Shown here: positions 21,856 through 56,312 of the stretch, in pieces
Numbering within the stretch: position 1 is the stretch's first letter
Layout: each line of letters begins with the position of its first letter
NCBI GenBank assembly: GCA_964654645.1
Contig: CAZZJO010000043.1
Coordinates: 24,650 to 88,649, forward strand
Length of the DNA stretch: 64,000 nucleotides
Source of the DNA: an uncultured Verrucomicrobiota bacterium
GTDB taxonomy: Bacteria; Verrucomicrobiota; Verrucomicrobiia; Limisphaerales; CAZZJO01
Direction of reading: 5' to 3'
Made by a program: the position numbers and the translations under genes
Notes under the pieces: generated by a model
Database searches by the model: none
What the model saw: the letters and a program-made list of their open reading frames with translations, nothing else
Told to the model about the DNA's origin: nothing

Positions 21856-24288
21856 ATGTTGTGGGTGTTAGGTTGGTTGGTATTGTCAGCTGCAATAGGA
21901 ATAGCGTCGGATTATCCAATCTCACCTGTGCCTTTCACAGAGGTTCGGTTTACTGGTGGGGTACTGTACGAACGGCAAATGACGAATTTACTGGTTACTT
22001 TGCCATTCGCAATGAAGCAGCTTGAGACATCGGGCAGGTTACGCAACTTTGATCTGGCTGCCGAGGTTATGCGCCGCAGACGCGCTGGTGAAACCAACTA
22101 CCAGGTCAAACCACCTACTGAATACCCGTTTGATGACTCGGATGTGTATAAAGTTATTGAGGGTGCGTCTTATTGTCTAAGTCTGCAGTACGATCCTCGT
22201 TTGGCGCAGACATTGGAAGAGATAATTGCTCGTGTGGCCGCAGCTCAAGAGCCAGACGGCTACCTGTACACGTTTCGAACAATGCACCCAGATTCGCCGG
22301 GACATCCTTGGATCGGCCACGAACGATGGGAGAAAGATCCCGAATTGAGTCACGAGCTATATAACCTTGGTCATTTGTTTGAGGCGGGTGTGGCACATTA
22401 TCAAGCCACAGGGAGTCGGTCTTTGTTAGATGTTTGCGTAAAAGCTGCTGAATTGTTGTGGCGGGACTTTGGTGACGGGAAGCGGAAAATTGCACCTGGA
22501 CATCAAGTGGTTGAGATGGGGTTAGTGAAATTGTATCGTGTGAGTCACGATGATCGTTGGTTACGTCTCGCGAAGTTCTTTTTGGACGTGCGGGGTTACA
22601 GGAACAATCCATACTCCCAGGACCACAAGCCGGTACTAGAACAGACGGAAGCCGTCGGTCACGCGGTGCGAGCCAATTATATGTATTGCGGCATGGCGGA
22701 CGTGGCCGCATTAACCGGTGATCCTCGGTACTTTGATGCAATCACGCGGATCTGGCAGAACGTGGTTAGTTGTAAGTTGCATCTGACGGGTGGGTGTGGT
22801 GCTCGCGCGGCGGGGGAAGCATACGGAGATAATTATGAGTTGCCGCATCGATGTTACAATGAGACATGCGCGGCTGTGGCATTCCTTTTTTGGAATCATA
22901 GGATGTTTCTCATGACGGGGGACGCGAAGTATATGGATGCGTTTGAACGCACATTATATAACGGGGCGCTTAGTGGTGTGTCATTGTCCGGCGACCGGTT
23001 TTTCTATCCTAATCCGTTGGAATACGATGGAAAATCCCGTTTTAATCATGGTCACGCTGGTCGTGCACCTTGGTTCGGTTGCGCTTGCTGTCCACCGAAC
23101 ATTATGCGTCTGCTAGCTTCGTTGGGCGGGTATGTGTATGCAGTTGCCAGCAATAGAGTGTATGTGAACCTATTTGCCCAGTCGGAGGCGAATGTGCACG
23201 TTTCGGGGCAGAAGATAAAGTTGATCCAAAAAACTGACTACCCTTGGAGTGGAGACATTGCGTTATTAGTTTATCCGGAGCGGACAGCAGAATTTACACT
23301 AAGCATCCGGGTGCCATGTTGGGTAGAAGGTAAACCTTTGCCGAGTGATTTGTATTACTACGGAGACCGTCTTCGAACTAACTGGAAAGTCACGGTGAAC
23401 GGTGCGCACTGTGGTGCTGTCAGGAGTAACGATGGTTATTTGAGTATCACCAGGCGATGGGAGCCTGGGGACATAATTTGGATTCATTTTCCTATGGTAC
23501 CTCGCCGGGTCTTAGGTAATCCTCACATAGTTGCTACGCGCAGGCAGGTGGCTTTGATGCGAGGACCAGTAGTTTACGCATTTGAAGGATTGGATAACGA
23601 TGGATACGTGTTTGATATTGTGTTGCCTGATTGCGCTAGGATTAGTACGGAATATAGGCCGGATTTCTTTGCCAAGGTACCATTGTTAAAAGTGCAAGGA
23701 GCGTTCCGCGCTGTTTATGATGACGCAGGCAGTAAAAAGCTTGTACGCTCGGGGGAACTAATAGCCATTCCTTATGCGTGGTGGGCAAACCGAGATCGGT
23801 CACCAATGGCTGTTTGGGTTGCAAAGGATCCAATTTTTGCGAGGCCAAAACTGCGTCCAACCCTGGCAAATAAGGCCAAAGTGAGCGTTTCGTTTGCCAG
23901 AGGTGGGATGAGCCTCGATCCCATTAACGATCAGGAAACTCCAGAAAATGCCCCAATAGGATCGGTGGCTAACTTTGATTTTTGGCCCCGAAAGGGAACA
24001 AAAGAGTGGATTATTTATGAATTCCCGCAACCGGTTACTTTACGCAAAACGCGTGTGTGGTGGTTTGACGACACGGGAATTGGCGAGTGTAGACTACCAG
24101 CTTGGTGGCAAATCCTTTATAAAGAAGGCGAGCAGTGGAAACCGGTCGAGGCTTTAGACCCCTACCGGATAGAAAAAGATCTCGGGGTGGAAGTCCGGTT
24201 TAAACCTGTTACTACAATTGCTGTACGTCTGGAGATTCAGTTGCTTCAGGGATACTCGGCCGGTGTGTATGAGTGGCAGGTGGAATGA
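21856..24288 (+). CDS. GH127 beta-L-arabinofuranosidase-like protein with a C-terminal discoidin/CBM32-like domain, exported
   Basis: HELYN.GH, GHAVRA.Y, NETC and CACCPPN Zn/Cys motifs, YPW.G and an N-terminal signal peptide. Confidence 0.9.
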   Translation: MLWVLGWLVLSAAIGIASDYPISPVPFTEVRFTGGVLYERQMTNLLVTLPFAMKQLETSGRLRNFDLAAEVMRRRRAGETNYQVKPPTEYPFDDSDVYKVIEGASYCLSLQYDPRLAQTLEEIIARVAAAQEPDGYLYTFRTMHPDSPGHPWIGHERWEKDPELSHELYNLGHLFEAGVAHYQATGSRSLLDVCVKAAELLWRDFGDGKRKIAPGHQVVEMGLVKLYRVSHDDRWLRLAKFFLDVRGYRNNPYSQDHKPVLEQTEAVGHAVRANYMYCGMADVAALTGDPRYFDAITRIWQNVVSCKLHLTGGCGARAAGEAYGDNYELPHRCYNETCAAVAFLFWNHRMFLMTGDAKYMDAFERTLYNGALSGVSLSGDRFFYPNPLEYDGKSRFNHGHAGRAPWFGCACCPPNIMRLLASLGGYVYAVASNRVYVNLFAQSEANVHVSGQKIKLIQKTDYPWSGDIALLVYPERTAEFTLSIRVPCWVEGKPLPSDLYYYGDRLRTNWKVTVNGAHCGAVRSNDGYLSITRRWEPGDIIWIHFPMVPRRVLGNPHIVATRRQVALMRGPVVYAFEGLDNDGYVFDIVLPDCARISTEYRPDFFAKVPLLKVQGAFRAVYDDAGSKKLVRSGELIAIPYAWWANRDRSPMAVWVAKDPIFARPKLRPTLANKAKVSVSFARGGMSLDPINDQETPENAPIGSVANFDFWPRKGTKEWIIYEFPQPVTLRKTRVWWFDDTGIGECRLPAWWQILYKEGEQWKPVEALDPYRIEKDLGVEVRFKPVTTIAVRLEIQLLQGYSAGVYEWQVE

Positions 24289-24346: not shown

Positions 24347-24421
24347 TGGAGCCAGCTGTCGGATTCGAACCGACGACCGGCGGTTTACAAAACCGCTGCT
24401 CTACCGCTGAGCTAAACTGGC
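24347..24421 (-). tRNA. tRNA-Thr(TGT), CCA encoded
   Basis: Reverse complement GCCAGTTTAGCTCAGCGGTAGAGCAGCGGTTTTGTAAACCGCCGGTCGTCGGTTCGAATCCGACAGCTGGCTCCA forms a full cloverleaf with anticodon TGT. Confidence 0.97.
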
Positions 24422-24760: not shown

Positions 24761-25699
24761 GTGTACTTGATTGAGTCCATTATAACTAAGTGGCTACATT
24801 CAGATGCTTACGCGTTCAAAGAGTTGCATAGGGTATGGGAACGCGCAAGGCACGTGGAAAAAGTGTTGTGCGTTGTGTGGGCGTCGGTGACCCCGTTGCA
24901 TTTTCGGGCAGTGCAGGAATTCAGGCCGGTATTGGTAGCTTCAGGAGGACTAGCACGGGGTGAAATATACCCAAAGAGTGACGTTGATGTGAGAGTGATT
25001 TACGCAGGTTCTATAACCGGGTCGGACCGGCTAGCCATTTTGGCGCGTTTGCTGGATGGATTACGGCGTAAGTTTCGAGGCTTTAAATGGTTGGCAAGTC
25101 CTGCGTTGATCGGAATAGAGGAGGCTTTAAGGCTTGCAAGACTTGAGCCGGAATTTTTCTCCGCTTTGTTGGAAGCACGGGTGATAGCGGGTAACATTGA
25201 TACGTTTTTAGCGTTTGAGGATAAATTTTGGAGTCAATGCGTAAAGGAAATGAGGGATCAGTATTTACGGACTCGAATCGAGGATCGGCGGGCTCGCATC
25301 AAGTCTTTAAATACAGTTACGCCCATCCTTGGGGTAAACGTAAAACGTGGGATTGGCGGAATGTTGGATTTTTGGGATTTGCTTTGGAGCAATTATGTCA
25401 TGTTTGGTAGTTGGGACATTGGGGTATTGGCCGATAAAAAGCTTTTGACGTGGGATGAATTAAAGTGGTTGCTCCGTGCATACATTTTTCTTGTCCGGGT
25501 TAGAGAACATTTGCACCGATTTGCACTACCGGAGAGGGATTCAATAGAAAGTAGCATTGTGGAAGACCTTGCGACTGCGCTGGGTTACGAAGGACCGCAA
25601 AAGGCAGCGCAGTTCAATCATGATCTACGAAGGATAATGAGTGGAATTGCAAGGATTACGCTCAAAGTCCAGCTGATGCTTCTGAGGAAGGCTTTCTGA
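24761..25699 (+). CDS. GlnD-like nucleotidyltransferase module only (NT plus substrate domain; no HD or ACT)
   Basis: SGGLARGEIYPKSDVDV (GG.GRGE..P.SD.D) and NVKRGIGGMLD (..K.G.GGLRD) match the GlnD/GlnE NT fold. It ends at 312 aa and the start is uncertain. Confidence 0.7.
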   Translation: MYLIESIITKWLHSDAYAFKELHRVWERARHVEKVLCVVWASVTPLHFRAVQEFRPVLVASGGLARGEIYPKSDVDVRVIYAGSITGSDRLAILARLLDGLRRKFRGFKWLASPALIGIEEALRLARLEPEFFSALLEARVIAGNIDTFLAFEDKFWSQCVKEMRDQYLRTRIEDRRARIKSLNTVTPILGVNVKRGIGGMLDFWDLLWSNYVMFGSWDIGVLADKKLLTWDELKWLLRAYIFLVRVREHLHRFALPERDSIESSIVEDLATALGYEGPQKAAQFNHDLRRIMSGIARITLKVQLMLLRKAF

Positions 25700-46025: not shown

Positions 46026-48647
46026 GTGTCTGTTGATTCCCTATCAACAATGGAAAACCGAAACGACAACAACCAAAACGTTGGCCAACCAAAGTCTGCA
46101 TACAGTGCAGGCGAAAGAATCCAACGTGTTAACATAGCCGAGGAACTAAAGGCATGTTTCCTCGACTATGCGATGTCGGTCATCATTTCGCGTGCGCTTC
46201 CCGATGCGCGTGATGGTTTAAAGCCGTCGCAACGGCGAATCTTATATGCAATGCATGAGCTTGGGTTGGCACCGAATAAGAAACATTTAAAGTGTGCTCG
46301 TATAGTCGGGGAGACTATTGGTAAGTACCATCCCCATGGTGATCAGGCTGTGTATCCCACGCTTGTTCACATGGCCCAGCCTTGGTCCATGCGGGAGGTT
46401 TTAGTCGATGGCCAGGGCAATTTCGGGTCGATTGAGGGTGATCCACCAGCTGCAATGAGGTATACGGAGGCTCGGTTAGCGCCATTGGGAGCGTTGCTGA
46501 TGGAGGACATGGACAAGGACACAGTGGATTTTGTCCCTAACTACGATAATACCCATCTAGAACCGGTAGTTTTCCCGGCGGCTTTCCCAAATCTTCTTGT
46601 GAATGGAGCCACTGGTATTGCCGTAGGAATGGCTACTAACATTCCCCCACATAACTTGGCAGAGGTCATAGATGCCATTTGTGCACAGATAGACAACCCA
46701 GACATCACAATTGACGAGTTGATCACTTACATAAAAGGGCCGGATTTCCCCACGGGGTGTATGGTCTGTGGAGTTGAGGGGATCCGCCAATATTTTGCGA
46801 CAGGTCGTGGAACTTTAAAGATTCGTGGCCGCGTGGGAGTAGAAGAGCTTAAAGGGGGCAAACAACAAATTGTTATCACGGAGATCCCGTTTGGTGTAAA
46901 CAGAGCCCAGTTGGTTGAGAAGATCGCTGAATTGGTAAATAACAAGACTCTTCAAGATATAACTGCAATTCGAGACGAGTCGGACGAAAACACCCGCGTA
47001 GTGATTGAAATCAAGCGCGATGCGATTCCCAAGGTAATTATAAACAATCTTTACAAGCATACCCAGTTGGAAACGACATTTGCCGTAAACATGTTGGTAA
47101 TCGACCATGGGCGACCTAAAACGCTTAACATTAAGGAGCTAATCAACTGCTACATAGAACATAGGCGTGAGGTGATTTTAAGACGGACTAGGTTTGAGTT
47201 AAAAAGAGCTGAGGATAGGGCAGAGGTGTTGGAAGGATTCCTTATTGCATTGGCAAATTTGGATGAATTCATTCGCATAATTAGGACGTCGCGGACTCGG
47301 GAAGAGGCCAAAGTGAAACTAATGGCATTTGAGTTTACCCGCGCACAGGTGGAGAAATGGGGGATCCACATTCGCAAACCGGACCGCCTAGTAAATGGCC
47401 GATACGCGTTTAGTGAGGTCCAAGCTGATGCGATTTTAGACTTGAGATTGTATCAATTGACAGGAATGGAGGCGGATAAGGTCCGGAATGAATACAAGAG
47501 TTTATTGGAGCGAATTGGTGATCTGAAAGACATACTGTCGAAGGAATCACGGGTATTGGCGATAATTAAGGAAGGTCTCCAGACTGTTAAGGCAAAATAT
47601 GCCAATCCACGGCGGACGCAAATCGTGCCTGACGAAGGTGAAATGGCTATTGAAGATTTAGTTGCGAACGAGCCAGTCATAATCACTATCACTCACAATG
47701 GGCTTATCAAACGCACCAATGTCAGTGCGTATCGTGCCCAACGACGGGGTGGTAAAGGGGTTATAGGAATGAGTACCCGAACTGATTCAGATTCGGATGG
47801 GGATGCAGATTTTATTGAGCACCTTTTTACGGCTAGCACGCACGATTACATGATGTTCTTTACCAACACTGGGCGTGTGTATGTAGAGCGCGTGTTGGAA
47901 TTGCCTGACATGGGACGGGCTGCAAAGGGCCGCAGTATAGCCAACTTTCTTGAATTGAAACCGGAAGAAAAAATTGCAGCATTGATTCCCGTGCCGGTCA
48001 AATATGGGCCGAACCGCGAGGACCAAACATGGCAACAACCCTATTATGTATTTTTCGCTACCAAGAAGGGTACGGTGAAAAAGACCGCTCTTTCTGAGTT
48101 TGCTCACGTGCGTAGAGGTGGAATTATTGCCATCAACATTGAAGAAGGTGACACTCTTATTGACGTGCGTTTAACTCGTGGAAATGACGAGGTTGTTTTG
48201 ATTACTCGATATGGGATGAGTATTCGGTTCCACGAATCTGAGGTTAGGGAGATGGGGCGGCAGGCTGCAGGCGTCCGGGGTATATCACTTGAGGAGGGAG
48301 ACGAAGTAGTTGCGCTTTCAGTAGTAGTGCCGGATGCACATCTTTTAGTAGTAGGTGAGAACGGTATCGGGAAACGTACATCCTTTGAGGAGTACCGTGT
48401 CCAGGGGCGGGGTGGAAAAGGTATAATAACCATGAAAACTACTGAAAAGACGGGACCCGTAATTGGTGCTCTTACAGTTCGGAATTCTGATGAAGTAATG
48501 GTCATTACCGCAAAAGGGCAAATGGTTAGGATCCGTGTTGCCGATATCCGAGAAACAGGACGAATCGCCCAAGGTGTGAAATTGATAGAACTAGAGGCCG
48601 GTGACAAGGTTCAGGCGGTGGCACCTGTCATACAAGAAGATTACTAG
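46026..48647 (+). CDS. gyrA: DNA gyrase subunit A
   Basis: [22 protein letters not shown], the GyrA-box QRRGGKG and C-terminal pinwheel repeats. Confidence 0.99.
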
Positions 48648-48926
48648 GAAGAAAAGGTTGCTGAGAGGACCTGAGTGAATTTTCGAAACGCGATTAAGGG
48701 TGGATTCAAAAGGTTTTCTGTCACATAGGGATCTGAGGTTTGTGCCAATAAGTAAGAAAGTGTGTGTGGAATTGTGGCACTTACGGGTACCCCCAAGGCA
48801 AACCTCCCTTTATAGTTGGGCTTTTACCTTGGACGTTCAGGGTTGTTAAAAACATTGTTTTGTTGAAAGCGGTCCTTACCCTTAGGAGTATCGCTTCCCG
48901 GTGTAATGCCTGCGAAAAAATGCAAT

Positions 48927-50594
48927 TTAGGGTTTAGAGTGTATTTGGACACCTGTCATTCCAATTTGGTCCCAATGTAGGTTTTTGATGGCTGGGATAT
49001 CATCCTTCATGCTGTTGAAAATCTCCTCTGGTTGTGTTCCAAGTTTTTTCCCGTTAAGGCAAGCTAGCAGATTATTTATCCAAATATAGGCAGGGCGAGC
49101 CTCGCTGGGAGGTTCTACTGCCTGGAAGAATTTTTGGATTCGACCGCTTTTATTAATGAATGTGCCAGTTTTTTCAGCAAAGGTTGCCCCAGGGAAAACC
49201 ACGTGAGCTTGATCGGTCAGTGCTGTGCGAACGACATCATACACTACAAGTAGGTCTAGTTTACCTAAGATAGGTTGGGTCAGTTCAGGGACTTGGGTGT
49301 TTTCGCCAAACACAAAAAGTATTTTCACGCGTCCTACTTCGATATCGTGGATAATTTTTGGTATGTATAAGCCCACTTCTGAGTAACATACGCCTGTAAG
49401 GATTGCGCCTTGGGTGTTTGGGTTTCGGTCGGACGAAAGCAACAGATGATCGTGTGGGCCTTGTGCCACGAGGATGTCGGAGGTGCAATTTAAAAGAGAT
49501 TTAAGCTTAGCTACGAGCCAAAGCTCCTCTGTTGATAGTTGCCCAGAGGCTATAATTGCTGCTTGTTTGGAACTGTTTTTTCGGAGGAAATTTGCAACAT
49601 ACTCGACAGCATGCTGGGGGGATATGCTCGTTCCGTTAACGGTCGGACGGACCAACCGGGTAGGACTTTGGGTAAGCTTGTATTGAAACCTTCCGTGATC
49701 ACACATCCATGGACCATTAACTTCGTCGTTTTGACGGGGAGTAATGCGGTAGATCACATTTTGTCGAGACCAGATTGTTATATTGCAGCCTGTGCTACAG
49801 CCTGGGCATATACTGGGTGTTTCTTTGAGGAACCAAACCCGCATTCGAAACCGGAAATCCACAGACGTTAAGGCACCTACAGGGCAGATATCCACCGTGT
49901 TTAACGTGTAATTATTGTCGAATTTTTTACCGGGATAAACTGCAATCATTGAACGGGCTCCTCTGTTAATGATCCCTAGCACGTCATCGCCTACTATTTC
50001 TCGGGTAAACCGTATACATCGTGTACATAAAATGCAACGTTCAGCGTCATACATTACCCGCGGCCCAAGTTGGACGGCTTTGGGTTTGTGGAGCTTTGTT
50101 TCGTTAAATCTAGAGCTGTCTCTCCCGTAAGCTACTACGTGTTCTTGGAGGGTACATTCCCCGGCTTGGTCACAAATTGGGCAGTCTAAAGGGTGGTTCG
50201 CAAGAAGGAATTCAAGGATGCCTGTGCGCATTTGTTTAACTGCGGGCGTATCGGTATAAATTTCCATGCCTGGGGTGATGGGGGTTGCACATGCAATTAC
50301 AGGCCGTGGGGATTTTTGTACTTTGGGCGTACCGTCTGGGTTCAAGACGAGTTTGCCACTTGAATCTTTCACCGGGAAACCTACCTCGACAAGGCACATT
50401 CGACAGTTCCCGGCTATGGGGAGTTTTGGGTGGTAACAGAAATGGGGGACTTCTACCCCAGCCAAAATGCATGCTTGCATGATCGTAGTGGGGGCTGGTT
50501 GCCCTCGCCAGTCAGGCGTGAGCAGACTCACGGTAATGGGCTTCCCATTTACTTTGACGGTAGCCAGTTGGTCTTTTTCATCCATTTGGCTCAT
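48927..50594 (-). CDS. nuoG: NADH:quinone oxidoreductase subunit G
   Basis: PHFCYHP, GNCRMC, HPLDCPICDQAGEC, CILCTRC and CPGCSTGC..C Fe-S motifs. Confidence 0.95.
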   Translation of the reverse strand: MSQMDEKDQLATVKVNGKPITVSLLTPDWRGQPAPTTIMQACILAGVEVPHFCYHPKLPIAGNCRMCLVEVGFPVKDSSGKLVLNPDGTPKVQKSPRPVIACATPITPGMEIYTDTPAVKQMRTGILEFLLANHPLDCPICDQAGECTLQEHVVAYGRDSSRFNETKLHKPKAVQLGPRVMYDAERCILCTRCIRFTREIVGDDVLGIINRGARSMIAVYPGKKFDNNYTLNTVDICPVGALTSVDFRFRMRVWFLKETPSICPGCSTGCNITIWSRQNVIYRITPRQNDEVNGPWMCDHGRFQYKLTQSPTRLVRPTVNGTSISPQHAVEYVANFLRKNSSKQAAIIASGQLSTEELWLVAKLKSLLNCTSDILVAQGPHDHLLLSSDRNPNTQGAILTGVCYSEVGLYIPKIIHDIEVGRVKILFVFGENTQVPELTQPILGKLDLLVVYDVVRTALTDQAHVVFPGATFAEKTGTFINKSGRIQKFFQAVEPPSEARPAYIWINNLLACLNGKKLGTQPEEIFNSMKDDIPAIKNLHWDQIGMTGVQIHSKP

Positions 50595-51994
50595 GCAGAT
50601 ACAAGGGATTTATCAGTAAGTTTGCCGGTGTGGGTATGGTTTGAAAGGTAGTGGAGTATTTCGTGCCTGAATTTCGTGGCGATGCTTTGGACTGGTCCAG
50701 CGCATGCGTCCCCGAATGCGCAAACGGTTTTCCCACCACCAATATTATTAGCAAGCTCAATCAGTAGATCTAAGTCAGATTCTGTTGCATTCCCGGATTG
50801 AATTCGTTGTGCAATTTTTAGCATCCAAAGGGTGCCTTCCCTGCAGGGAGTGCATTGGCCACAACTTTCATGTGCAAAAAACTCAAGTACACTCACAAGG
50901 ACGTCAACCATGTTTGTGGAATCGTCGATCACAATTATCCCTCCTGAACCGCTCATGGTGCCTGCTGATGAAAGGGTGTCGAAATCATACGGGAGGTCGA
51001 GTATGTTCAGAGTATTTGTTGTAGTTTTGCCTGGCAGCTGTACTGTAAAGGTTTCATCAAGACGGAGGACTTTAGACGATATACCCCCGGGAAAAATGGC
51101 TTTGAGTTTTCTATTGGGTGGAAGACCGCCGCCAAATTCGGGGTCAAAGACCAGATCACCCAGTGTAAACTTGCCCAATTCAATTTCGTAGACGCCTGGT
51201 TTTTTGACTGCGCCACTAAGGCAAACAAGCCGTGTACCGGTATTATTGGGTGTGCCAAGCCTAGCATAATTTTCCCCACCCATTTCCACGATGTGTTTAA
51301 CTGCGCACAATGTTTCCACATTGTTGACGATGGTTGGGCAACCATACAAACCGTACACTGCGGGGAAGTATGGGGGTTTGATACGTGGGTATGGGCGTTT
51401 ACCTTCCAAAGATTCGATTAGGCCTGTTTCCTCCCCACAGATGTAGGCGCCTGCACCTCGATGAATTACCACTTCTAAGTCATACCCGGTGTTGAGAATG
51501 TTTTTTCCTAGAAACCCATGCTGGACAGCTTCTTGAATTGCGTTTTCGAGGATTTTAGCTCCCTGGGGGAATTCGCCCCGGATATAAATGAAGGCCTTAT
51601 GAACGTGGTTGGCAAAGGCAGCTATAGCAAGGCCTTCCAGAAGCTGGTGAGGATCTCTGTGAATTATTTGTCTATCTTTGAAAGTACCTGGTTCGGATTC
51701 GTCTGCGTTACAGATCAGGTAAATGGGTTTATCTTGCTTATTTTGGTGAACAAACTCCCACTTTGTTCCTGTGGGAAAACCGGCGCCACCGCGCCCACGC
51801 AAACCAGAACGTTTAATTTCGTTTCTAATTAATTCTTGGGGTGAGATAACCCGACCATTTGATTCCAAAGAAGGTTGCATTGTAAAGACACGACGTAGGG
51901 TTTGGTATCCCCCGTGCCTGAGGTAGCATTGGATGTCGGGGGTATAATCCGGGTTAGAAAAGTTCTTCGTGATAAGTTTGGTTTGTTTGCTCAT
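50591..51994 (-). CDS. nuoF: NADH:quinone oxidoreductase subunit F
   Basis: GLRGRGGAGFPTG, CNADESEPGT, AYICGEET and ESCGQCTPCREG motifs. Confidence 0.97.
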   Translation of the reverse strand: MSKQTKLITKNFSNPDYTPDIQCYLRHGGYQTLRRVFTMQPSLESNGRVISPQELIRNEIKRSGLRGRGGAGFPTGTKWEFVHQNKQDKPIYLICNADESEPGTFKDRQIIHRDPHQLLEGLAIAAFANHVHKAFIYIRGEFPQGAKILENAIQEAVQHGFLGKNILNTGYDLEVVIHRGAGAYICGEETGLIESLEGKRPYPRIKPPYFPAVYGLYGCPTIVNNVETLCAVKHIVEMGGENYARLGTPNNTGTRLVCLSGAVKKPGVYEIELGKFTLGDLVFDPEFGGGLPPNRKLKAIFPGGISSKVLRLDETFTVQLPGKTTTNTLNILDLPYDFDTLSSAGTMSGSGGIIVIDDSTNMVDVLVSVLEFFAHESCGQCTPCREGTLWMLKIAQRIQSGNATESDLDLLIELANNIGGGKTVCAFGDACAGPVQSIATKFRHEILHYLSNHTHTGKLTDKSLVSA

Positions 51995-52037
51995 TTTCTA
52001 GTAAAAACTTTGTTTGTCGCTGTCCCTGTGTGAAGTC

Positions 52038-52065
52038 TTGACAGGTACCCTGGGCCGACTAATTT
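52038..52065 (+). promoter_or_regulatory. Sigma70 promoter for tRNA-Gln
   Basis: Perfect TTGACA (52038-52043), 16 nt spacer, TAATTT (52060-52065), 11 nt upstream of the mature tRNA 5' end. Confidence 0.6.
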
Positions 52066-52076
52066 TAGGGCAGAGC

Positions 52077-52150
52077 TGCCCGATGGTGTAACGGTAGCAC
52101 AGCAGACTCTGGATCTGCGTGTCTTGGTTCGAATCCAAGTCGGGCAGCCA
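52077..52150 (+). tRNA. tRNA-Gln(CTG), CCA encoded, antisense within the nuo cluster
   Basis: TGCCCGATGGTGTAACGGTAGCACAGCAGACTCTGGATCTGCGTGTCTTGGTTCGAATCCAAGTCGGGCAGCCA forms a full cloverleaf with anticodon CTG. Confidence 0.97.
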
Positions 52151-52169
52151 AATTTGTTTGCGCCACATT

Positions 52170-52721
52170 TCATTTCGGTATTTCCGCACGATTGCAATTG
52201 CGGATTATTTCTTCCAAGGTCGATATGGTGCATCTTTCCAGGAGTTGATCACTTAACATTGCTACGGGAGCTAGGTCACATGCGGCAAGACATTCTACTT
52301 GTTCTACAGTGATGTGTCCGTCAGGGGTTGTTTGTGGGCCTGGATTGTTGGGGTCCAAATTAAGCTGGGCGCAAAGTGTGTGATAAAGATGTAAACTGCC
52401 TTTTAGCATGCATGGGAGAGACTTGCAGATTTTAATGTGGATTTGGCCGCTGGGTGTTTGTCTAAGCATGGGATAAAAGGTTACCAGTTCTAGCACGTGA
52501 ATGGGATCCACCCCCACTTTAGATGCGGTCCATTCTATTAATTGTGGGGTGAGGTACCCAAATTTTTCCTGCAAGGTATGGAGGATCATAAGGACGGCGC
52601 TTCGTGGTACCGGATACTGTTTAATGATCGAATCCACGTGAAATTCAATCTCTGGTGTGATCCGGGTATGATCACACACTTGGTGTGAATCAAATTGGGC
52701 TTTGGTCAGATCGTTTTCCAT
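52170..52721 (-). CDS. nuoE: NADH:quinone oxidoreductase subunit E
   Basis: YP..RSA.L, VTFY, CKSLPC and ECLAAC..AP 2Fe-2S ligands. Confidence 0.95.
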   Translation of the reverse strand: MENDLTKAQFDSHQVCDHTRITPEIEFHVDSIIKQYPVPRSAVLMILHTLQEKFGYLTPQLIEWTASKVGVDPIHVLELVTFYPMLRQTPSGQIHIKICKSLPCMLKGSLHLYHTLCAQLNLDPNNPGPQTTPDGHITVEQVECLAACDLAPVAMLSDQLLERCTISTLEEIIRNCNRAEIPK

Positions 52722-52732
52722 GGTTTTTACTT

Positions 52733-54001
52733 CTATCTATCGCATTCGCCCATGACAAAATCCAATGAGCCTAGGATGGCAGGTATATCGGCTAGCAGGT
52801 GGCCGGGGAGAATTACAGGTAAAATACTTAGGGTGAAAAATGAGGGAGGTCGGATCCTTAACCGGTAAGGCACACCACCACCGCGGCTTTGAATGTAGAA
52901 GCCTAATTGGCCCTTTGGGTTTTCGTGGGCAAAATAGACTTCGCTGGGTGGACAGTCAGGACCGCGTGTAACATTCATAAAATGATGGATTAACTCTTCC
53001 ATTTGCGTCATTACGTTCGATTTTGGTGGCAGGGCTACCTTGAAGTTACTGATCATAATTGGCTCATGGCTGGTATTGTCTGGTCCGCCGGGAATTTTTT
53101 GGATGCATTGGCGGATGATCGAGGCGCTCTGACGGATTTCTTCTAACCTGACCAGGTACCGGTCGTAACAATCTCCTATTGTACCTATGGGTATGTCAAA
53201 CTGGAGTTCATCGTAACATAGGTACGGTTGATCTTTCCGAAGGTCTAATGGCACGCCGCTGGCTCGCAAGTTGGGTCCAGTCAATGCATAGTCGATCGCA
53301 GTTTGTGGTGGGATCGTACCTACATTTTTAGTTCGTTTTATCCAAATGATATTCCGTGTAAGTAACCGGTCGATCTCATCTACGGTTCTAAGGAGTTCAT
53401 CGAGAAATTTGTTGAGTGTGGTGCACCACCCAGGTGGGAGATCACGAGCTACACCGCCGATTCGAGTGTAGCTGGTGGTGAATCTCGCACCTGTGAGCGC
53501 TTCGCAGAGGTTGTAGATTTTTTCGCGTTCTGTGAATTGGTATAGGAAGACAGTGACAGCGCCGCAGTCCATTGCAAATGCGCCTAGCCCAAGCAGGTGT
53601 GAAGAGATTCTAGCTAATTCACTACAGATTGTTCGTATGTAAACTGCGCGTGGCGGGATTTGATCTTCTATACCCAGCAATTTTTCAACTGCCAACACGT
53701 AAGCTACATTGTTTGCCAAGGGTGCTAAATAGTCCAATCTGTCGGTGTATGGGATGAATTGGGTATAGGTGAGATGCTCAGCAATTTTTTCAAAACCGCG
53801 GTGCAGGTATCCGATATGAGGCCGGACTGACACGATCCGTTCGCCGTCCAATTCTAATTCGATTCGAAGCACACCGTGTGTGGATGGGTGGGAGGGGCCC
53901 ATGTTCAAGTGTAATAGGTCGTTTTCTGACCAGGTGTGCGCAGGGGCCCCCCCTGGATGGTAGATCAACTGAAAAGTTTGATTTTCGTTCTGGTTAAGCA
54001 T
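52733..54001 (-). CDS. nuoD: NADH:quinone oxidoreductase subunit D
   Basis: NMGPSHPSTHGVLR, GYLHRG.EK, DRLDYLAP, GDCYDRY and GSLDFVMGECDR motifs. Confidence 0.97.
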   Translation of the reverse strand: MLNQNENQTFQLIYHPGGAPAHTWSENDLLHLNMGPSHPSTHGVLRIELELDGERIVSVRPHIGYLHRGFEKIAEHLTYTQFIPYTDRLDYLAPLANNVAYVLAVEKLLGIEDQIPPRAVYIRTICSELARISSHLLGLGAFAMDCGAVTVFLYQFTEREKIYNLCEALTGARFTTSYTRIGGVARDLPPGWCTTLNKFLDELLRTVDEIDRLLTRNIIWIKRTKNVGTIPPQTAIDYALTGPNLRASGVPLDLRKDQPYLCYDELQFDIPIGTIGDCYDRYLVRLEEIRQSASIIRQCIQKIPGGPDNTSHEPIMISNFKVALPPKSNVMTQMEELIHHFMNVTRGPDCPPSEVYFAHENPKGQLGFYIQSRGGGVPYRLRIRPPSFFTLSILPVILPGHLLADIPAILGSLDFVMGECDR

Positions 54002-54002
54002 T

Positions 54003-54572
54003 TTACTGTTGGGGATGGGCCCGTGGTTCGCTGGGATGATGGCCTGGGAGTATGTGGAATGGCCCGCCTTCCAGAGGTGCGGGCTCAGTGAAAAGACCGT
54101 TAGATCCTTGCCAGGATCTTCCAGCTAACGGGAAATCTTTTCTCATTGGATGCCATGGGTATTCATCCCACATTAGAATCCGCCGCAGATCAGGATGCCC
54201 TTGGAATCGTATACCGAACATATCGTAAACTTCACGTTCTAACCAATTACTCGCAGGCCATATATGGGAAACTGTGGGGAATGTAGGCGGATCTTCGTTT
54301 GTACTGATACGCAACCGAAGCATGCAATTTTCTTTTATGTTCCATAAATGATACACCAACATCCATCTTGGCGAAGTTTCCAGGTTATCCACCGCAGTCA
54401 GGTCTAGCAGCATCTCAAACCCCAACTGGTGTTTTAGAAAATGGCAGATCTTTAGCAGGTCTGACCCAGAATTGATTACCAAAGTAGTCTGACCACGGAA
54501 CTCGGTGTGTTCTACAATAAGCTTAGGGAAGGCCGATTTAAGTAAGTTTACCTTTTCTGCGAGTGTGGACAT
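54003..54572 (-). CDS. nuoC: NADH:quinone oxidoreductase subunit C
   Basis: DLTAVD, WLEREVYDMFGI.F.GHPDLRRILM and HPMRKDFPL. ATG 54572 preferred (ORF track 54707 overlaps nuoB). Confidence 0.95.
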   Translation of the reverse strand: MSTLAEKVNLLKSAFPKLIVEHTEFRGQTTLVINSGSDLLKICHFLKHQLGFEMLLDLTAVDNLETSPRWMLVYHLWNIKENCMLRLRISTNEDPPTFPTVSHIWPASNWLEREVYDMFGIRFQGHPDLRRILMWDEYPWHPMRKDFPLAGRSWQGSNGLFTEPAPLEGGPFHILPGHHPSEPRAHPQQ

Positions 54573-54591
54573 AGACTGTGTGTGTAAAGTT

Positions 54592-55095
54592 TTAGCTTTC
54601 AATTTGGCGCCGGAAGAGAGGTTGTGTTTGGATTTTTTGCTGGAGTTGTATAAGTGCCTGAAGGATTGCTTCTGGTCTAGGGGGGCATCCAGCAATGTAC
54701 AAGTCAACCGGTATAATGCGGTCTACGCCTTGTAATACTGAGTACGACCTGAACATTCCTCCTGTGCATGCACAGGCACCCATGGCAATGACCCATTTAG
54801 GTTCCGTCATTTGTTCGTACAAGGTTTTAATTATGGGCGCCATTTTGTAAGTAACAGTACCTGCAACAATCATCACATCTGCTTGGCGGGGGCTAAACCG
54901 CATTATTTCTGATCCAAATCTTGCGAGGTCAAAACGTGCGCCACCGCTTGCCATAAGTTCGATGGCACAGCATGAAGTCCCAGCCGGTAACGGCCAAATA
55001 GAGTATTTCCTGAACCAGTTTATCAATGCTTCCAGCCTGGTCAGCAGCACCGTACCATCGTAAATACCAGTTCCGGCTTTGCAACTTCTCTGCAT
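54592..55095 (-). CDS. nuoB: NADH:quinone oxidoreductase subunit B
   Basis: SCCAIE, RFG, SPRQAD, MGACA and GCPPRPE motifs. ATG 55095 preferred (ORF track 55140). Confidence 0.95.
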
Positions 55096-55352
55096 CTTAT
55101 TTACGCACAGCGAATATTCGGTTCGGAAAAGTAACCGCATTTTGCTACCGAGGTAAATCAGTTGGCAAGCCAGATCCTGAATAATATTAAGCTGGGTCAG
55201 TTCGAGCCTGATTTTGGCGGATTGGCAAGGGAAAGCGTTTATTTGTATGTCCGAAACCGTTCCCAGACCTTATAGGTTTGCTTTTTAACCCGATGGGTAA
55301 GGATTTGCGTAATGTGTGTTTTAACGGATTGTAAGCCTGGGCAAGACAATGG

Positions 55353-56312
55353 TTAAGTGTGAGTGTTTGATTTTTCGTAGTGAGTTTGGTGAGCCAGGCG
55401 TGTGGCAACAAATAGACTCAAACCGTATACGAGAAGGGTGCCAAGAACACCTGCTAGAATTGTTCCGAGTAACCCAAGGTTAACATCCCCGAGTTTTATA
55501 TTGTAGTCTTGCGCCGGGGCAGGGAATATAGGCTTATTAGACGCTTTTTCAATAAATCCGAAGTTGTGGGCTACGCGCTCAAGACCGTCAGGCCAACCAC
55601 ATGCCACCGGCGTGCCTATAATCACAAGGCCGATCACAGCAGCGAATCCGAACCCAATTGCATGTCGTGCTGGTGTTTGAGAAGGTTTTTCTTGTAGATT
55701 TAGCAGGTGGGGGAAAAGCCTATGCAGAGTAGCTACAAGTAAAGCTGAGATTACCCCCTCGCCAAGCCCGATTATTGCATGAATGCCCATCATGATTGGG
55801 AAAACCAGATTACTTTTAACGGTGCCTGAGATTTTTAGTTCTGCTGCGCAGGCAAAAGCGGCTGCTACAGTACTTGCCCAGCCCCCGAAGCAAACGCCTG
55901 CGTACATGCCGAGTGGATCACCTAAAATTTTTCTTAGCTTTTTGGCGAGGAAGTAACCTCCCGTGGGGGCAATGATTGCCATGTTAATGATATTTGCGCC
56001 AAGGGCGGTTACCCCACCATCCGCAAACATAAACGTTTGTGCTACCAAGACTGTGGTCATGATTAAGATTGCGGGTGGAAGCCCCAGCACGGTTGCCATT
56101 AATGTGGCACCGAGTAAGTGACCAGAGGTGCCTTTGGCTACAGGGAAGTTTATCATTTGCGCGGCAAAGACAAACGCGGCGCCCAAACCAATAAGCGGTA
56201 CAGTGCGTGGATGAACCCGAAGTTTGACAAAGGTAGGTATGACTACAGCAGCGGCTAAAATTCCCGTGCCCACAGCCGTTTTGATGTCTAAGAAACCATC
56301 GGGTATGTGCAT
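55353..56312 (-). CDS. cbiM: CbiM/NikM ECF-type Ni/Co S component fused to a PDGLE (NikN) domain
   Basis: N-terminal MHIPDGFL, AQMINFP..GTSGH, GG.TALGAN and H..IG.GE motifs, with C-terminal WPDGLERVA. Confidence 0.92.
   Translation of the reverse strand: MHIPDGFLDIKTAVGTGILAAAVVIPTFVKLRVHPRTVPLIGLGAAFVFAAQMINFPVAKGTSGHLLGATLMATVLGLPPAILIMTTVLVAQTFMFADGGVTALGANIINMAIIAPTGGYFLAKKLRKILGDPLGMYAGVCFGGWASTVAAAFACAAELKISGTVKSNLVFPIMMGIHAIIGLGEGVISALLVATLHRLFPHLLNLQEKPSQTPARHAIGFGFAAVIGLVIIGTPVACGWPDGLERVAHNFGFIEKASNKPIFPAPAQDYNIKLGDVNLGLLGTILAGVLGTLLVYGLSLFVATRLAHQTHYEKSNTHT

Follow-up and report, generated by a model that had tools for sequence, protein, structure and literature searches.

A promoter-bearing tRNA-Gln gene lies head-on between nuoE and nuoF and stays linked to nuoF in relatives

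The 64,000-nt stretch of DNA analyzed here (the window), from an uncultured Verrucomicrobiota bacterium of the Limisphaerales, carries a minus-strand run of complex I genes that is interrupted between nuoE and nuoF by a tRNA gene reading in the opposite direction. Such a layout raises the question of how transcription reaches the genes beyond the tRNA, and whether the tRNA gene plays a part in their expression or is simply lodged there. The genes concerned are as follows.

48927..50594, minus strand: nuoG-like gene, 555 aa (PF22117, PF10588, PF00384, PF04879)
50591..51994, minus strand: nuoF, 467 aa, divergent from tRNA-Gln(CTG) (PF01512, PF10589)
52077..52150, plus strand: tRNA-Gln(CTG), 74 nt, CCA encoded (ARAGORN; Rfam RF00005)
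52170..52721, minus strand: nuoE, 183 aa, convergent with tRNA-Gln(CTG) (PF01257, 2.3e-41; open reading frame list)
52733-54001, minus strand: nuoD (Pfam; nuoBCD set PF01058, PF00329, PF00346)
54003-54707, minus strand: nuoC, start uncertain (Pfam, same set)
54592-55140, minus strand: nuoB (Pfam, same set)

The nuoF–nuoE spacer (51995-52169) is 175 nt long, made up of 19 nt, the 74-nt tRNA gene and 82 nt, so that 82 nt separate the nuoF ATG from the 5' end of the tRNA, and 43 nt separate it from the −35 box of the tRNA promoter. Alignment of NuoF with its relatives begins at residue 1, and the nuoF stop overlaps the start of the nuoG-like gene (ATGA). Leaders of the genes here are A-rich and devoid of Shine-Dalgarno sequences, and arguments from ribosome-binding sites are therefore of no help. 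The gene before nuoB in the window is cbiM or nikM, and no nuoA is found there. Genes for nuoH and two antiporter-like subunits (nuoL, nuoM or nuoN type) lie on another contig (C59:17353-22992) and a third antiporter-like gene on yet another (C62:54542-55432); the genes for complex I are therefore spread over several loci of this small genome (assembled to 95% completeness as 70 contigs totaling 2.63 Mb). Over the whole of window positions 48000-56000 the plus strand has a positive GC skew; if the skew reflects replication, tRNA-Gln would be co-oriented with the leading strand and the nuo genes would face the fork.

ARAGORN found two tRNA genes over the window, tRNA-Gln(CTG) and tRNA-Thr(TGT). 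The former scored 61.9 bits against the Rfam tRNA model RF00005 (gathering score 29, E = 8e-12), with its encoded CCA at 52148-52150, and is single-copy among the 45 tRNAs of the genome, in which every anticodon is single-copy except CAT (three copies). Among relatives, 100 copies of homologous tRNA-Gln(CTG) collapsed into 36 distinct sequences, each 74 nt long with CCA, and across these 36 the acceptor and T stems carry compensatory changes (5/66, 6/65, 7/64 and 48-49/61-62 covary). Cloverleaf score, stem covariation and the lack of a second copy are all those of a bacterial elongator tRNA-Gln(CUG), and the tRNA is an essential-looking, single-copy one. Its presumed signals for initiation, and the one feature resembling a signal for termination, are listed below.

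52038..52043, plus strand: −35 box TTGACA of the tRNA promoter (read from the sequence; conserved in relatives)
52060..52065, plus strand: TAATTT, the −10 box of the same promoter (16 nt after the −35 box and 11 nt ahead of the mature tRNA 5' end)
52183..52213, plus strand: weak hairpin (52183-52204; 6 bp, 10-nt loop) followed by a U-rich run, within the 3' coding region of nuoE (found by folding; absent from the terminator scan)

A generic promoter scan missed the tRNA-Gln promoter, TAATTT being a 3/6 match to TATAAT. All 92 distinct related loci nevertheless carry TTGAC ahead of the tRNA 5' end, at 39-46 nt (mode 44) apart from one at 51 nt, and all 92 carry TAnnnT 15-19 nt after it; several other tRNA genes of the genome have similar TTGAC-type −35 boxes about 40 nt upstream. 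The recurrence in 92 of 92 loci, together with the similar boxes at other tRNA genes, therefore places the tRNA-Gln promoter far beyond chance. It has the makings of a sigma-70-type tRNA promoter (a class marked by hexamers 16-18 nt apart, fixed in distance from the gene and conserved) and, by this comparison, is conserved as strongly as the tRNA gene itself. The comparative evidence thus establishes a functional, autonomously promoted tRNA-Gln(CTG) gene. The tRNA leader (window 52068-52082) contains GGGCAG, a repeat of the 3' acceptor strand that could pair with the 5' acceptor strand; in relatives this leader copy is not conserved, and the distribution of matches equals that of shuffled leaders.

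No significant terminator was found within the window between or around tRNA-Gln and its neighbors on either side, and the 93 nt downstream of the tRNA fold no better than shuffled sequences (z = −0.84). The hairpin inside nuoE is the sole terminator-like feature after the tRNA. The original prediction, made from the letters of the sequence, had described an intact tRNA-Gln(CTG) on the plus strand inside a minus-strand cluster, its CCA ending 19 nt from the nuoE stop, TTGACA-16-TAATTT upstream and no evident terminator hairpin. ARAGORN, the Rfam score and the flanking Pfam matches agree with the first of these points, the coordinates with the second, the sequence and the 92 related loci with the third, and the terminator scan and the fold against shuffles with the last.

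Relatives were found with NuoE among metagenome-assembled genomes titled Verrucomicrobiota, Verrucomicrobiia or Limisphaerales. Limisphaera and Pedosphaera are cultured members of the order. Several of the related metagenome-assembled genomes derive from peat sites of the kind whose metatranscriptomes record Limisphaerales (bioRxiv 10.64898/2026.05.27.727921). From 30 same-order relatives, each of a different family and with NuoE 42-53% identical, 28 (28 of the 29 that could be evaluated) have tRNA-Gln(CTG) antisense just after nuoE; of the remaining two, one locus is cut by a contig end and the other has nuoFG relocated together with the tRNA. Conservation of the arrangement, which had been proposed as a check on the idea, therefore holds order-wide. 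Over the larger set the tRNA is present in 89 of 110 loci, and in each of these it converges with nuoE and diverges from nuoF. Outside the order but within the class, nuoE directly precedes nuoF, with no tRNA, at 11 of 12 loci (orthologous nuoF, 54-65% identity), and tRNA-Gln(CTG) lies far from nuo in the sister orders. In one sister family (f45; loci L137, L139, L142, L143, L145, L146 and L147) a single TTGACA-type promoter serves a compact tRNA-Lys(CTT)-Thr(TGT)-Gln(CTG) operon in which it comes third and last; the gene now in the nuo cluster may have had its ancestral place there.

On the NuoF tree the loci with the tRNA form one clade (SH-aLRT 99). Since the tRNA-bearing loci are monophyletic and the sister orders have contiguous nuoE-nuoF, there was a single gain of the tRNA, dating to the base of the order or close to it; on this phylogenetic evidence, the tRNA-Gln gene was inserted a single time, head-on, into an ancestral contiguous nuoBCDEFG cluster. 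A single locus, L120 (which is the same place as L078), lacks the tRNA; it branches in the unresolved basal part of the tRNA-bearing NuoF clade. At that place (L078:4440-4760) NuoE is extended at its C-terminus by about 70 residues rich in Lys and Ser, and 40 nt further on nuoF begins; the contig is of very low coverage.

Loci at which the cluster has come apart indicate which of its two neighbors the tRNA is tied to. Fifteen loci have nuoBCDE with nothing related downstream. NuoF was searched for in 13 of these 15 genomes plus the L078 genome, and was found in 12 of the 14. In 11 of the 12, tRNA-Gln(CTG) stands divergent from the relocated nuoF, 51-108 nt upstream of it; the twelfth is L120. 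The split between nuoBCDE and nuoFG arose seven times on the NuoF tree, at least five of these events falling on well-supported branches, and each time the tRNA remained with nuoF. The genomic comparison thus establishes the tRNA–nuoF pair, and not nuoE–tRNA, as the conserved link. Because the two halves separated at least five times with the tRNA staying with nuoF, nuoFG can be expressed without nuoBCDE upstream. At the split loci the DNA beyond the tRNA varies; some have a co-directional gene that ends 200-700 nt away, and at two of them, L111 (where it is ffh) and L119, the next gene shares the strand of the tRNA.

Two other tRNA neighborhoods served as controls for synteny, both anchored on this one long-branch genome. 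On contig C59 (156677-158589) a tRNA-Gln(TTG), a small response-regulator-like open reading frame and gltX, for glutamyl-tRNA synthetase, lie on the same strand, a suggestive functional pairing. This tRNA is about 500 nt upstream of gltX, and none of 29 relatives has a tRNA within about 1.5 kb of the gltX start. In the window itself, tRNA-Thr(TGT) (24347-24421, minus strand) is antisense between open reading frames at 21856-24288 and 24761-25699, both on the plus strand, and lies 58 nt past the stop of the first. Its neighborhood was kept in 0 of 7 relatives (best homologs of the neighbor protein), a weak control given that the 810-aa neighbor family is patchy with many paralogs; the gltX control is the cleaner one. 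The values of 0/29 and 0/7 therefore mark the tRNA-Gln(CTG)–nuoF adjacency as exceptionally stable in comparison with these two.

Spacing among the relatives shows how closely the two are packed. Between the tRNA 5' end and the nuoF ATG there are never fewer than 46 nt, most often 50-54 nt and, in the tail of the distribution, up to 597 nt; the gap is at most 61 nt in 46 of 84 loci (55%, gaps 46-61 nt) and exceeds 100 nt in about a quarter of relatives. At short-gap loci the nuoF ATG is 3-10 nt from the tRNA −35 box. Such a gap leaves no room for a nuoF promoter plus leader, and the 5' end of the nuoF mRNA must therefore fall within the tRNA gene or past it. At the nuoE end of the spacer, 19 loci have 1-11 nt between the nuoE stop and the 3' end of the tRNA, with a tail to 1750 nt, and in 11 loci the nuoE frame overlaps the tRNA by 22-96 nt (96 nt in L079; also L003, L004, L029, L030, L043, L052, L084 and L109), so that the C-terminal residues of NuoE are there encoded opposite the tRNA. 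With the nuoE stop near or inside the tRNA gene, nuoE transcripts must therefore also enter it. For the short-gap majority these distances argue well that nuoFG transcription traverses the tRNA promoter and gene in antisense, so that mutual interference is probable. The same traverse in the window's own genome, where the gap is 82 nt, and any regulatory use of it, are more tentatively suggested by the layout. Gaps of up to 597 nt exist, and tight overlap is therefore not required. Many relatives have spacers filled, on either side of the tRNA, with heptamers repeated in short tandem arrays (ATTTACG, three to four times; GGCTGAA, three to four times; GGAGTGC, three times; TGCGTGA or GAAACGT, three times). 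They lie downstream of the tRNA in L061, L021, L086, L055, L101, L105, L050 and L052, and upstream of the −35 box in L018, L058, L075 and L110, and they recall the heptamer repeat families of cyanobacteria.

Two candidate promoter elements were noted on the nuoF strand.

52062..52067, minus strand: candidate −10 box TAAAAT, overlapping the tRNA −10 box (read from the sequence; −35 region inside the tRNA, weak, 3/6)
52292..52320, minus strand: promoter-like CGGACA-17-TAGAAT inside nuoE (scan, at background frequency; no positional counterpart in relatives)

If active, the element inside nuoE would send polymerases across the tRNA gene in antisense and on into nuoF. A search of 92 loci, from 200 nt beyond the tRNA to the nuoF ATG, for a conserved sigma-70-like promoter on the nuoF strand (TTGAC[AT]-like plus TAnnnT) gave scattered matches with no positional conservation.

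To the reading that best accommodates these data we assign a probability of about 0.5: the tRNA-Gln unit was inserted head-on and locked to nuoF, the nuoFG mRNA crosses it, and the whole would work like a noncontiguous operon. Under this reading tRNA-Gln would be its own strongly promoted unit, inserted once in the ancestor of the order and thereafter physically locked to the start of nuoF. The nuoFG mRNA would come from polymerases that pass over the tRNA promoter in antisense and, as a rule, over the tRNA gene from end to end. These would set out either from the nuoB promoter, by read-through, or from a weak promoter situated within the tRNA gene or immediately past it. Sharing of this DNA would bring interference through polymerase collisions and promoter occlusion, and the antisense tRNA in the nuoFG leader could pair with transcripts of the tRNA strand and be cut by RNase III, the gene for which is present in the genome (contig C20). 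Growth-rate-dependent gating of nuoFG would be a possible regulatory use.

The original prediction had cast the locus as a noncontiguous operon in which transcription of the tRNA could uncouple nuoBCDE from nuoFG. The first part fares well in its anatomy: nuoBCDE, the opposite-strand tRNA-Gln and nuoFG follow one another in order, as in the embedding typical of such operons, the embedded gene is intact and has its own promoter, no terminator intervenes, and the layout is order-wide. It needs modifying in that the conserved link joins only the tRNA and nuoF, and the locus is best said to resemble a noncontiguous operon in its layout. Two points speak against the second part, the uncoupling, as an adaptation. 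NuoE and NuoF are partners in the NADH-oxidizing module, so the break separates NuoE from its own partner; the insertion point is no module boundary and not where adaptive uncoupling would be expected, and it suits a historical accident better. Moreover, nuoFG works when moved away from nuoBCDE, and read-through from the nuoB promoter is therefore not essential.

A serious rival, to which we would give slightly less than even odds, is that the linkage is a frozen accident. The tRNA would have landed in a permissive spacer, shrinkage would have overlapped its promoter with the start of nuoF, and the resulting interference would be tolerated or compensated rather than used, so that the linkage could be lock-in by overlapping signals with no regulatory benefit. 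This explanation concerns adaptive value and is compatible with either read-through or a two-unit architecture. It draws strength from the single origin, from an insertion point that is not a functional module boundary, from the difficulty of relocating a single-copy tRNA gene, and from the way breaks and insertions pile up on the nuoE side, where the DNA is free (gaps to 1750 nt, and full separation). Yet lineages with gaps of 100-597 nt have room to part the two, and the tRNA and nuoF are unseparated in every tRNA-bearing locus, which weakens lock-in by overlapping signals. Nor are the two control tRNA neighborhoods kept (0/29 and 0/7), and tRNA-Gln(CTG) itself relocates in the sister orders over comparable time.

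The cluster could alternatively be two independent back-to-back units, an explanation we regard as possible though tentative. Transcription of nuoBCDE would then stop by collision at the tRNA or by Rho, nuoFG would have its own promoter in the 82-nt gap (for example within TAATTTTA, giving TAAAAT on the minus strand), and the tRNA would be a mere divergent neighbor with no interference. TAAAAT at 52062-52067 could indeed provide such a promoter, with a nuoF leader of about 60 nt, and bidirectional promoters built on −10 symmetry are common in bacteria (PMC10268837, PMC12825309). The genomes with split loci lend further weight: nuoFG works apart from nuoBCDE in at least five lineages, and at L111 and L119, where the tRNA is followed by a gene on its own strand, nuoF must have a nearby promoter. 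Against this, TAATTTTA in the window is offset by 2 and does not form the canonical TAnnnTA with reciprocally paired −11A and −7T, the −35 region of TAAAAT falls within the tRNA and matches at only 3/6 positions, and symmetric TAnnnTA −10 boxes occur in 21 of 92 relatives, about the level of chance, so that a bidirectional −10-symmetry promoter was rejected as a candidate. The 55% of loci with gaps of 46-61 nt have no room for a promoter and leader, and the search of 92 loci returned no conserved promoter on the nuoF strand. In this genome, separate transcription units for nuoBCDE and nuoFG are possible.

It is unlikely, in our view, that the tRNA-Gln unit has been selected as a cis-acting regulator of complex I expression, either as a head-on valve responsive to growth rate or as the carrier of the nuoFG promoter and leader. 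As a valve, the growth-rate-sensitive tRNA promoter would set the number of polymerases that reach nuoFG; as a carrier, the antisense D-arm TGcTACCGT might speculatively act as an extended −10-like box for nuoFG. Either version would explain why nuoF never parts from the tRNA. As a specific signal the D-arm motif was rejected, the same D-arm being found in sister-order tRNA-Gln and in the TTG isoacceptor, none of them near nuo.

Very improbable is a further alternative, in which the antisense tRNA in the nuo mRNA forms a mirror-image cloverleaf that serves as a processing or stability signal (for RNase P, RNase Z or RNase E) separating the nuoBCDE and nuoFG messages. Mitochondrial tRNA punctuation is the model for a tRNA as a processing signal. 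The spacer RNA of the nuo strand is predicted to fold strongly (−52.4 kcal/mol, z = −2.3) and its antisense stems are all Watson-Crick except for one U-G pair, but a strong fold is the automatic by-product of any tRNA gene read in antisense, the antisense T-loop and D-loop lose the identity elements of a tRNA, and the D-arm and acceptor match those of sister-order tRNA-Gln that is not near nuo, and so give no sign of adaptation. Finally, a recent insertion, a mobile-element remnant or an assembly artefact, for which only the 6-nt GGGCAG copy of the 3' acceptor strand in the window's tRNA leader would speak, has a negligible probability, given an order-wide and monophyletic layout, a cluster with no integrase or other mobile-element gene and only nuo genes as neighbors, and a leader copy whose counterparts in relatives match the acceptor strand no better than shuffled leaders do; an integrative element at the tRNA is likewise refuted by the conservation, and the locus does not qualify as one.

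Comparative genomics by itself reveals a tRNA gene kept head-on in the cluster for the peripheral arm of complex I, order-wide and through at least five break-ups. A full-text literature search returned no paper on a tRNA gene between nuoE and nuoF, or on an embedded antisense tRNA in an operon. Head-on or antisense overlap is known to couple or exclude neighboring genes, in cases that are protein-coding and were described strain by strain from transcriptomes; tRNA genes are among the most heavily transcribed DNA in the cell. If the tRNA-Gln unit were a selected cis-regulatory element, it would be the first switch of the noncontiguous-operon type with an embedded tRNA, and would link translational capacity to the supply of the NADH-oxidizing subunits. 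Were the tRNA promoter to gate or drive nuoFG, growth-rate control of translation would be linked to assembly of the respiratory chain, and gating would extend the noncontiguous-operon concept to stable-RNA genes. If the tRNA does nothing, the locus would be a clean natural case of lock-in by signal overlap and of the tolerance of an operon for head-on conflict.

Among known systems the closest are noncontiguous operons, exemplified by S. aureus menE-menC with the embedded MW1733 (Saenz-Lahoya et al., 2019, PNAS, PMC6358700; S. aureus atlas, PMC11034616). The authors of the S. aureus atlas consider that noncontiguous operons cannot be called without transcriptome data and are not computationally predictable, and their text makes no mention of tRNA (PMC11034616). 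As in those operons, an opposite-strand gene is embedded here between co-directional, linked genes of one pathway with no isolating terminators, and overlap and mutual repression are expected. The embedded member here is a short, very strongly transcribed tRNA gene rather than a protein-coding antagonist, and the conserved linkage is to the downstream gene only. Excludons, first described in Listeria and also cited in PMC11034616, are a second relative, in which the long untranslated region of an mRNA covers a neighboring gene. They share with the present locus opposite-strand neighbors with overlapping transcripts, the expression of one lowering that of the other, whereas here a tRNA gene and its promoter would be overlapped by the leader of an mRNA or by the spacer of an operon.

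Bidirectional promoters with −10 symmetry have the sequence TAnnnTA in common, and 18 bp separate their start sites (Warman et al., 2021, cited in PMC10268837; PMC12825309). The divergent tRNA/nuoF pair resembles them in its shared AT-rich −10 region (TAATTTTA) and differs from them in that the canonical geometry is lacking in the window and not enriched in relatives (21/92). For a tRNA kept beside the same protein gene over long evolutionary time, the nearest likeness is a co-directional one, the conserved tRNA-protein operon thrU-tyrU-glyT-thrT-tufB of E. coli. There the tRNAs are co-transcribed with the protein gene from the same strand, whereas tRNA-Gln is held on the opposite strand, inside a respiratory cluster.
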